Assembly: GCA_965202985.1 (NCBI GenBank)
Contig: CBDBCF010000001.1
Span: 704,001 to 768,000, forward strand
Reading direction: 5' to 3'
Source of the DNA: Longimicrobiales bacterium
Lineage (GTDB): Bacteria; Gemmatimonadota; Gemmatimonadetes; Longimicrobiales; Gaopeijiaceae
Length of the DNA stretch: 64,000 bases
Shown: positions 21,801-24,800 of the stretch, one piece after another
Layout: each line of letters starts with the position of its first letter
Numbering within the stretch: position 1 is the stretch's first letter
Made by a program: the position numbers

Positions 21801-24800
21801 GTAGGGTGGTTTGGGCACTCAGCGACGGCACCGCCGTGGTTCCGACCGCCGCCAGCAGGCCGAGCGCCGCGAGCGCGGTTCTCGCTACCGGCATCAGTAC
21901 AGACCGAACCTGGCGTCCGATCCAGGCTTGCCGAAAGAAAGTCGCTTGGGGGGGGGGGGGGGGGGGGGGGGGGGGCATTTTCGGCATGTCCTCACCGTCC
22001 GAAAGGGCTCTTGTCTTGTCCCAGCGTAAGCTGGGAAGTTGGGAAGATTTCGGCGTCAAGTCAACGGGATCGGCGTACCGGCGGGAGATCGTCGCCCTGG
22101 TCCGCTCGGGACGGTCGCCGGAGGCCGTGGCGCGCGAGTTCGAGCCGTCGGCCGCCAACCTACGCCCGCGGATGGGCCGCCTTGTAGACGCGGCGCAGCC
22201 GCTCCTTGGACGCCGGGCGACGCCAGCGAGGGCGACCAGTCCGTGTCTTCGGCTTCGACGCCCGCGACGAGAATGCGGGTGCGGCCCGTTGCCGCGTCGA
22301 CCACGAAGACGCCGTGCCCGTAGCTGCGTTCGCCGGTAAACACGATGTGCCTGGAGTCGGGTGCCCAGCTCGGGTCTTCGTTGTTCCCTTCCGTGGTAAG
22401 CTGAACCAGGCGTCCCTCGCCGCCTTGGGTGTCGGCAACCAGGATTTGGAAGCGGGTGCGACGTCCTTCGGCGCGCCCGGAGAAGGCGACCTGCGTGGAG
22501 GCGGGGGACCAGTCGGGGTCGGTGAAGTGGCCACCTTCTCCGTACTGGTAGGGCGACAGCAGGACGGCCTCGCCGCCCGTGGACGGCATGACGTAGATCT
22601 GGGGGGTGGCGGTGCCCAGACGGCTGGACGTGAAGGCGACCTGCCGGCCGCCCGGCGAATAGGTGGGCTGCAGGTCGATGTGGTTGCCGCCGCCGATCCT
22701 GGACGGGTTGCAGCAGGCTCCGCGCAGGTCCACGGTGAACAGCTCGCTCCGGCGTCCGTTCAGGCGGGCGAAGGCGATCTCGCCCCCGTCCGGGTGGTAG
22801 GCGGGGGTGATCTGCTGGCCGTCGGCGCCGGTGGCCAGGGCCCGCGACTCCTCCGACGCCACGTCCATTTCGTACAGCGTCGGGAACCCGCCCTTCCACG
22901 ACACGTAGGCGATGCGCCCGCCGTCCGGAGACCACGCGGGCGAAGCGACCAAGTTCTCGTCCCAGGTGACGCGCCGCAGGTTCTCGCCGTCGGCGTCGAC
23001 CACGTACAGCTCCTTGCTGGTCGGGTCGTTGCGCGGCCGCATGGCGAAGGCGATCCGGCTCGCGGCCATCCCCGGTTCGCCCGTGATCCACTCCACGACG
23101 GCGTCGGAAGCGGCGTGCACGGCCAGCCGGAAGTCGGGATCGTCCGGCGCGGGAACGGAGAAGCGGCGACGCGCGCGCAGGTTGGCGAAGACCACGTCGT
23201 GGACCTCGATCTCCAGCACGAACCCTTCGGCGGTTCCGTCCAGCCCGCCCTTGACCAGCCAGTCCGCGCCCAGGCCGTCCCACAAGCCGTAGTCCACGCC
23301 CCTGCCGGCCAGCGCCGCGGGCAGGGAGTCGACGACTTGGAAGCGGTCGGAGTAGCGAAGGTCGCGGACCACGATGTCGTGGACGCCTTGGGCTTGGCTT
23401 TCTCCACCGAAGCGGCCTTCGAAGGGAAGCACCGCGATCGGCGGCACGTAGGTGGTCTCGTAGACGGTCCCCAGCGACACGCCGGGGATCGTCGCCTCCT
23501 CCTCTTGGGCAGCCAAGCCGTGCGCCCACGCCAAGACGCCGCCGGCCCACGCCGCGGCGCACCCGATCGCGAGGGGCCGTCGCCTGCCGGTGGGCGGTTG
23601 CCGGCGCATCACGGGCCTCTCGTCCTGGGGCTGAAGGTGAACTGCACCGGCAAGAACGCCCAGGGATAGTCCTCGGGCAGGGGACCCAGACGGCCCGCCT
23701 TGCCGGCGCACTCGGCCGCGCCTTGAGCGTCCAGGTCGAAGGCGAAGCTTCCCGACGACCGCTCGACGTCGATCTCCGACGTGCTTCCGTCCCTCGCGAT
23801 CTTGAAAGTCACGACCGCCTCCAGGCGGCTTCCCCGGCTGCGGCCACGGAAGCAGCGCTCCATCTGCACGATGATGTTGTCGTAGTACTCGGGGTAGTCG
23901 CGGCGAAGGCCCTCCATGCGGGCGGCCACGTCGCGCCCGTCGTCTTCGGCGTTCTCGGCGTCCTCCGTCGGGGCGGCTTGGGCGTCCCGGGGCTCATCGG
24001 CCGGGGGCGTGTCGGGCGGCGCGGGCGGCGGCGATTCCTCTTCGGGGGGCGCGACCGGCGGTTCGGGGTCGGGCTCGGGGGGCGGCTCGGGCGGCGATTC
24101 CTCTTCGGGTTCGGGGGGCGAAGGCTTGGGCAGCGCGGGCTCGGGCGCAGGGTCCTCTTCGGGGGGCGCGGGCTCGGGTTCGGGTTGGGGCGTCTCGATG
24201 ACCAGCTCGTCCTCGGGCGCGGGGAGAACCTCTTCGTCGGCGGGCGTCGGAGGCGGCGACGCGAACGAAACCCGCACGATCTCGTAGGCAACGGCCTCTT
24301 GGCGAAGGGCGGGCGCCACCCAGAGCAGGAAGACCAGGACGACGGCGTGGGCCGACGCCGACGCCCAGAAGGATCTGCGGTCCAAGGGCCCGCGACGGCT
24401 CATCGGATGATCTCGCGGCCGATGAGGCTGACGCCGACGCCCGCTTGGGCGGCCACGGCGGCCACGACGTTGAAGACGGGGCCGTAGTACGCCAGGGAAT
24501 CGCCCTTCACGTACACCATCTCGACCTGACGCGCCCGCAACAGCTGTCGAAGGAACGCGGCCACGCTGTCCCGCGCGACGGGCGTCTCGCCGACGAACAC
24601 GGAGGTGTTGCGGTCGACGCTGACGATGAGCATGTCGTCCGTGGCCTCGACGACGCCCACGTCGCCCTCGGGGACGTCCACGTCCACGCCGCCCTGGAGC
24701 ACGGGGGCCGTGATGATGAAGATCACCAGCAGGGTGAAAGCCACGTCCACCAAGCTGGTCACGTTGATCTCGGCCTTGACGGGCAGCACGGAGCGATCCT

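Follow-up and report, generated by a model that had tools for sequence, protein, structure and literature searches.

Poly-C/G tracts of the promoter type are known from the opc and porA genes of Neisseria and from fim of Bordetella, and in Haemophilus lic1A and lic2A several start codons, located upstream of the repeat, give graded expression. The autotransporters NalP and MspA of Neisseria meningitidis are phase-variable genes with intragenic poly-C tracts of 6–15 nt, as described in the relevant passages of PMC3723659. The Campylobacter phasome is built of poly-G/C loci, including the type IIG restriction gene cj0031, with tract lengths peaking at 9–10 nt, tracts of 13–15 nt being rare and 5% having C on the coding strand (excerpts of PMC6321876). 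Longer G/C tracts are reported to be more variable in meningococci (excerpts of PMC5084427), and whether multi-locus phasomes are restricted to pathogens is put as an open question in the excerpted part of PMC11868660.

In this work, we analysed a window of 64,000 nt from contig C1 of a Longimicrobiales genome (G000), which bears a run of 28 G on the plus strand (21948–21975), that is, C28 on the coding strand, four codons past the ATG of a giant surface-protein gene. We estimate at about 0.78 the probability that this run and its counterparts elsewhere form the multi-locus phasome of an uncultured, non-pathogenic sponge symbiont, working through slipped-strand translational phase variation. 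The C28 run would then be a simple-sequence contingency locus: ribosomes would initiate at the ATG before the run, and replication slippage, by gaining or losing C, would reversibly switch the gene, such that about one third of tract lengths would give the full exported protein of 4562 aa and the remaining lengths only peptides of 30–76 aa. About 26–31 such switches in G000 would fall into three layouts, located after the start codon (giant adhesin-like proteins, SusC, a sugar transferase, a PP-loop gene), inside the ORF (a type ISP-like restriction enzyme, pglX, DUF1156, SGNH, a methyltransferase, a putative regulator) or abutting the −35 box. Switching independently of each other, they would yield, within the sponge, a population whose cells differ in surface coat and phage defence and on which we infer a selective agent to act.

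Compared with NalP and MspA, the tracts described here are longer (15–36 nt), are associated with 11 giant Ig/cadherin paralogues per genome, have a second ATG after the run and belong to a non-pathogen in which switching is predicted. Just as in Campylobacter, there are about 20 or more G/C tracts per genome, located in surface-modifying and restriction-modification genes and sharing a core of orthologous sites. Unlike in Campylobacter, 19 of the 26 long runs in G000 have C on the coding strand (as assigned in this analysis), and the genome has a GC content of 68–69% and possesses MutS and MutL. In contrast to opc, porA and fim, the apparent promoter-type runs, found before a giant gene in three species, lie 5′ of TTGACA and hence upstream of the −35 box, not between the boxes.

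The giant gene (ORF P0001, 8299–21987, minus strand) encodes an array of ~126-aa repeats (12540–21400), of which 21 were counted by motif with two double-length gaps, i.e., at least 21, and cadherin repeats (10680–12180; PF00028, E = 1e-30, four motif anchors). The first-pass annotation had assigned such giants to the cadherin/Calx-beta type; the cadherin part holds for the window protein, but Calx-beta gave no hit in it and was found in the C2:788096 gene and its counterpart in the congener G003 (in a few other giants, the Calx-beta scan covered the first ~500 aa only). The model of the ~126-aa repeat was all-beta and Ig-like, with a pLDDT of 95.6. Its best structural matches, with Z of 6–8, include adhesin extender domains and are not specific; VIA Z values for this repeat reach at most 8.3, the ordinary beta-sandwich level, and Foldseek with the repeat gave no match at E ≤ 0.001. 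The adhesive function of the giants is thus far putative. The C-terminal region (8302–9792) resembles an autotransporter beta-domain by Atlas features (score 0.96, 28 of 30 hits), with recognition below threshold; it had no Pfam hit, and the single-sequence fold of the C-terminal 533 aa reached a pLDDT of only 32. Together with the signal-like stretch and the Ig-like/cadherin passenger, these features might be those of a type Va autotransporter adhesin, and P0001 may be an autotransporter-like Ig/cadherin protein, the barrel being a weak assignment. The same C-terminal ending is present in two other ORFs, C1:1804450–1843509 (13,019 aa), with G12 on the coding strand before its start, and C1:2580161–2613256 (11,031 aa), with no run.

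The 13.7-kb gene splits a tolB–pal cluster (7495–23609), with tolB upstream (22056–23609) and a pal-like OmpA-family gene downstream (7495–8199), both on the minus strand. All three congeners (G001–G003) have tolB and pal side by side, so that the giant gene must have been inserted into the tol-pal cluster, and the idea that it is syntenic with tolB in the congeners was rejected. If pal lacks a promoter of its own, the OFF state of the giant gene could have a polar effect on it. A ~150-nt repeat (22062–22212) overlaps or replaces the 3′ end of tolB; of its other copies, two are near-full (98% and 94.5%; C1:1459265 and C2:65322) and one is partial (C1:692221), and each adjoins a giant gene. A suspected likeness of this repeat to the start of an IS3 transposase found no Pfam match and was dropped.

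On the minus strand, the first start region (21976–21987) comprises the ATG at 21987–21985 (ATG1) and an additional in-frame ATG at 21978–21976 abutting the tract, which occupies codons 5–14, is in frame at 28 nt and reads Pro9-Gln. A Shine–Dalgarno-like site (21990–21996) lies 5′ of ATG1; its duplex energy is −11.6 kcal/mol vs. a median of −4.6 for called starts, an index that separates starts poorly in G000 (median −4.6 vs. −4.4) and was applied to the window gene only. The leader from the tract to a further in-frame ATG, hereafter ATG2 (21895–21947; 53 nt, 18 codons), is open in the gene frame, and its first 39 nt match the leader of the paralogue C1:7023 at 38 of 39 positions. At ATG2, the sequence TGATG (21892–21896) contains a +1-frame stop overlapping the start codon, such that with 27 or 30 C the first ORF ends on this TGA; a second +1 stop is located 7 nt into the signal peptide, and with 26 or 29 C the first ORF reads 134 nt beyond ATG2. 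From ATG2 (21894) there begins a signal-peptide-like stretch (21814–21894) with a basic residue, a hydrophobic core and an AxA-type end, as judged by inspection and hydropathy. No sigma-70 promoter match was found at 21900–22400, and the signal-peptide DNA motif gave 0 matches in a JGI metagenome scan, a set from which G000 itself and its closest kin may have been excluded.

The genome of G000 contains 177 G/C runs of 7 nt, 24 of 8, 8 of 9, 1 of 10, 4 of 11 and 1 of 12, none of 13–14 and 26 of 15–33 nt, while A/T runs do not exceed 8 nt; the corresponding counts of the first-pass annotation were thereby reproduced. Extrapolation of the geometric tail from 4–8 nt predicts 0.00014 G/C runs of at least 15 nt, vs. 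26 observed. A run of 16–28 C on the coding strand near the start was found in 11 of 17 giant surface-protein calls, just as previously claimed, vs. 5 of 2575 other calls, all gene calls being made afresh in this analysis. Both MutS (MutS_V in a 901-aa frame) and MutL (908-aa frame) are encoded without stops, so that hypermutability should be local. The longest run (C1:578510–578542, 33 nt) could not be assigned to a gene on either strand.

To decide which start is used, we surveyed 34 giant-gene sites in four species (G000–G003); the ATG1 test left out 3 promoter-type sites (leaving 31), and the ATG2 tests left out C2:788096, L009, L028 and L042 (leaving 30). At 23 of 31 sites, the 30 nt preceding the run contain an open ATG (control, 18%), and at 13 of 31 an ATG is at most 12 nt away (control, 7%). 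The upstream sequences of the giant sites are mostly unrelated to each other, which argues that the ATG1s are largely independent and do not descend from one inherited ATG. Across G000, an ATG precedes 14 of 25 runs when they are read as C vs. 2 of 25 when read as G. From the run to ATG2, the gene frame is open at 30 of 30 sites (control, 78–84%), and an unbiased check for further giant sites with a stop between the run and ATG2 returned just two runs of the promoter type and, in one case, a second run that lies farther off. The upstream A content is 0.24 for ATG1, 0.19 for called starts and 0.08 for the A-poor ATG2, whose folding is like that of internal ATGs (p = 0.89); the low folding energy of ATG1 is confounded, being partly due to the run itself. 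An SD motif precedes 25% of ATG1s and 29% of called starts. Most likely, translation starts at the ATG before the run, and the second ATG looks like an internal methionine. The concern voiced earlier, that a second ATG reduces the tract to a mere leader element, is thus weakened, although one giant class appears to be of the promoter type. As 30 of 31 start-type giant sites have ATG2, out-of-frame states may still yield some protein. The upstream ATG is in frame at 3 of 10 start-type giants (the window gene, C2:67287 and C2:602501), matching the three giants named before.

Domain scans place other runs inside the ORFs of a helicase/N6-methylase restriction gene, pglX, DUF1156, three SGNH genes, a methyltransferase, a putative regulator (without a family hit in Pfam/NCBIfam scans) and a SusD-like gene; those of SusC, a sugar transferase, a C5 methylase and a PP-loop-like gene lie at the gene start. 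A few sites, such as C1:578510, have no gene assignment. This agrees with the first-pass annotation, which had placed runs in SGNH, SusC and restriction genes and had described an SGNH gene split by C22 and pglX split by G11, both of which we saw again. The tract lengths and frames differ between orthologues and paralogues: the restriction gene bears C13 in frame in G001, C26 in frame in G002 and C13 out of frame in G003; the regulator orthologues have C15 (out), C36 (in), C15 (out) and C16 (in); the SGNH paralogues C22 (out), C24 (in) and C21 (in); and two near-identical G001 paralogues C19 (out) and C14 (in). The orthologous differences noted previously (C19 vs. C33 and C17 vs. C20) were also obtained, and such differences reach 21 nt. 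The PP-loop gene, being out of frame in all three species, counts against the switch. The restriction gene of G000 (C18, L118, C1:2443104) is open only with a second 1-nt indel ~105 nt upstream; here, a 1-nt insertion is offset by C18, leaving 35 codons in another frame, either by error or as a compensation. Elsewhere in G000, a C11 run (L113:1502–1512, C1:1213267) stands between a Tat-signal stretch and the gene of an NAD-dependent epimerase, which has an ATG of its own behind the run; in the G003 homologue (L054), the two are fused. This run may be an export on/off switch. Two runs lie just before stops, G21 of a glycosyltransferase (L122, C2:48764) and G18 of a methyltransferase (L111, C1:1139066), where slippage would change only the C-terminus or the coupling to the next gene.

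When six genomes were pooled, start-type sites with a long ORF were in frame in 21 of 66 cases, the other frames having 27 and 18 (p = 0.90 vs. one third); the sites examined for this included 30 of 40 of G045, 27 of 46 of G003 and 25 of 26 of G000, all 30 loci of G007 with junk-like runs, mostly at contig ends, having been dropped, and paralogues and congeners are not independent samples. Taken together, we found an excess of repeats, their location in the reading frame (ATG1 use being judged from sequence features), targets that are surface, surface-modifying or restriction genes, intact MutS and MutL frames as expected if hypermutation is localised and, between species and paralogues, length polymorphism with unlike frames at orthologous sites, conspecific samples being only suggestive. 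The placement, gene classes and differences in length and frame support the earlier reading of these tracts as phase-variable contingency loci.

A three-state variant, which refines the translational switch rather than replacing it, is a tentative and rather unlikely proposal. It holds that in the +1 frame the upstream peptide ends on ATG2, allowing re-initiation and hence a protein with a normal short signal peptide, that in frame an extended precursor is made, and that the third frame, which in the window gene runs far past ATG2, is OFF. More than two outputs would liken it to lic1A/lic2A, but with the second start located behind the repeat, re-initiation would be required. Consistent with this variant, the first +1 stop falls at −2 to +13 of ATG2 in 25 of 30 giant sites (controls: 39–51% of starts, 23% of internal ATGs); it is made variously (TGATG, ATGA, stops at +7 and +13), often via rare GTA/CTA codons, and the +7 stop is absent in three copies having TGATG. 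The same holds for unrelated genes (a sugar transferase, Dcm, one peptide family, an epimerase and a GFO oxidoreductase), and 11 of 16 hand-picked families fit, with p from 0.0001 to 0.12 depending on the control. A stop and a start within 10 nt served as the coupling signature in the excerpted part of PMC3711429. However, the −2 to +13 range was picked after seeing the data, the families were hand-chosen and 5 of the 16 do not fit, early +1 stops are not depleted (5 of 30 vs. 17–22%), the overlapping stop may be a vestige of an ancestral start, and the three frame classes given above show no clear departure from equality. Moreover, the arrangement is absent in G041, a genome from another phylum, where ATG2 is not conserved and out-of-frame reading meets a stop a short way behind the run.

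Among the paralogues, homology ends abruptly at the run. The downstream leader of the window gene is common to C1:7023 and C1:1473803; the upstream sides differ, the resemblance there being to C1:692117 instead. As far as the run, the upstream side of C2:67287 recurs in an unrelated gene that bears C9. The run may serve as a recombination joint. A homologous giant-gene leader is present in L241, a Longimicrobiales record.

Outside G000, the three congeners have 27, 6 and 46 runs of at least 12 nt, and 12 tracts precede homologues of the giants in G001, as counted before. In the same-family sample, 8 of 24 genomes are free of runs of at least 15 nt. A GTDB-wide scan for SD-ATG-C14 gave at least 120 loci, 57 of them (by hand count, among the matches listed) from 36 chromosome-level MAG records; these span many groups, with record titles giving no habitat, and include Poriferisocius, Poriferihabitaceae, Porisulfidus and Azotimanducus, which we take from their names to be sponge lineages. 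Five of these MAGs, picked because they matched, bear 10–47 runs of at least 14 nt each. In G041, 22 of 29 runs (C14–25) follow the ATG of fn3-type secreted paralogues at a distance of 7–17 nt; 8 of the 22 are in frame, and most lack a second ATG, which is the layout of a simple frameshift switch. Of the 61 genomes sampled in its family, 40 are free of runs, and just one other is rich in them, these being clustered and junk-like. G045, with an ATG before 12 of 30 runs and many sites without gene assignment, is a less clear case. In short-read Spirochaetaceae/Treponema MAGs, SD-ATG-C14/15 precedes polysaccharide pyruvyl transferase, radical SAM and methyltransferase genes (L145, L170, L189, L206). 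About 16 short, RiPP-precursor-like genes of G003, neighbours of P450 and asparagine-synthase-like genes, have a strong SD-ATG with C14–22 immediately behind it, in mixed frames (L029, L030, L045, L051–L055, three in L088, L089, L098, three in L090); in the same genome, a C21 run lies ~500 nt upstream of an EF-Tu-like gene start (L091). Short W-x-x-P peptide genes behind runs in G003, G043 and others, located beside P450, asparagine-synthase-like, HPr-kinase-like and GT8 genes, are likely RiPP precursors, judging from their sequence and neighbours. A wider proposal, which we regard as speculative and doubtful, is that sponge symbionts of many phyla have convergently acquired large phasomes of very long poly-C, acting in this genus as a three-state device and as a joint for start-module exchange among giant adhesins, and extending to RiPP precursor libraries. 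Literature searches over open-access text found no report of such a poly-C phasome in sponge symbionts, nor of phase-variable coupling.

It is highly unlikely that the runs act only at the RNA or promoter level, through spacing, leader structure or as a small-RNA target, with the protein always made from ATG2. A precedent for a small-RNA target is the G-repeat of H. pylori tlpB and RepG (excerpts of PMC8295292). In three species, the runs of C2:788096, L009 and L028 (C19, C33, C26) directly precede TTGACA, two of them with in-frame stops after the run, and this giant class with its orthologues is, by its sequence, promoter-type; in addition, ATG2 yields a complete signal peptide, and many ATG1s have no SD motif. 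Against this reading as a general one stand the ATG enrichment before the run, the open frame, the internal-like ATG2, the internal runs that split ORFs and the G003 peptide genes with a strong SD-ATG directly before the run.

No more credible is the reading that the runs are always in frame in vivo as poly-Pro/Gly linkers, the apparent frameshifts being long-read homopolymer miscounts. EF-P is present in G000, and the second indel in the G000 restriction gene may be an error, but the runs are in frame no more often than at random, they consist of CCC only, although Pro is most often encoded by CCG (50% vs. 42%), orthologous lengths differ as described above, promoter-type runs exist, and the same layout occurs in short-read MAGs (L176, C15; L254, C14).

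Run lengths of 15–36 nt in long-read assemblies may be miscounted, and single ON/OFF calls are therefore unreliable. Sequencing runs labelled as sponge metagenome contain 40–56% of the window's words, and three of them cover another G000 stretch in long pieces of ~97–99.8% identity. We compared the contigs of runs X1, X3, X5 and X7 over C2:48000–67900, these being assembled contigs, with differences given as net letter counts. At the G21 site of C2, the X1 contig bridges the run without difference, X5 has 394 letters for 398 (4 shorter), X7 stops there and has 791 letters against 785 (6 extra), and X3 has no piece listed; no piece from the four runs bridged the C16 giant site. That the long runs are sequencing or assembly artefacts is largely refuted and has next to no probability: junk runs do occur in fragmented relatives, in G007 at contig ends and in G089 in clusters, and long runs come mostly from chromosome-level MAGs, but those of G000 stand isolated, contain no other letter and are cleanly flanked, orthologous sites in four separate assemblies have them, other single-contig relatives outside the genus (G008, G012, G039) have few or none, and the X1 contig is identical across G21.

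The proposed slipped-strand phase variation would bear on whether multi-locus phasomes are confined to pathogens: among marine symbionts, G000 with its three congeners (6–46 runs of at least 12 nt) and the five MAGs from other groups provide a counter-case that can be tested, their runs having two to three times the length of those in Neisseria or Campylobacter. What is annotated in these MAGs as "pseudogenes", or seems to be a missing small gene, may be a gene in its OFF state, and the repertoires of surface proteins and natural products may vary from cell to cell.
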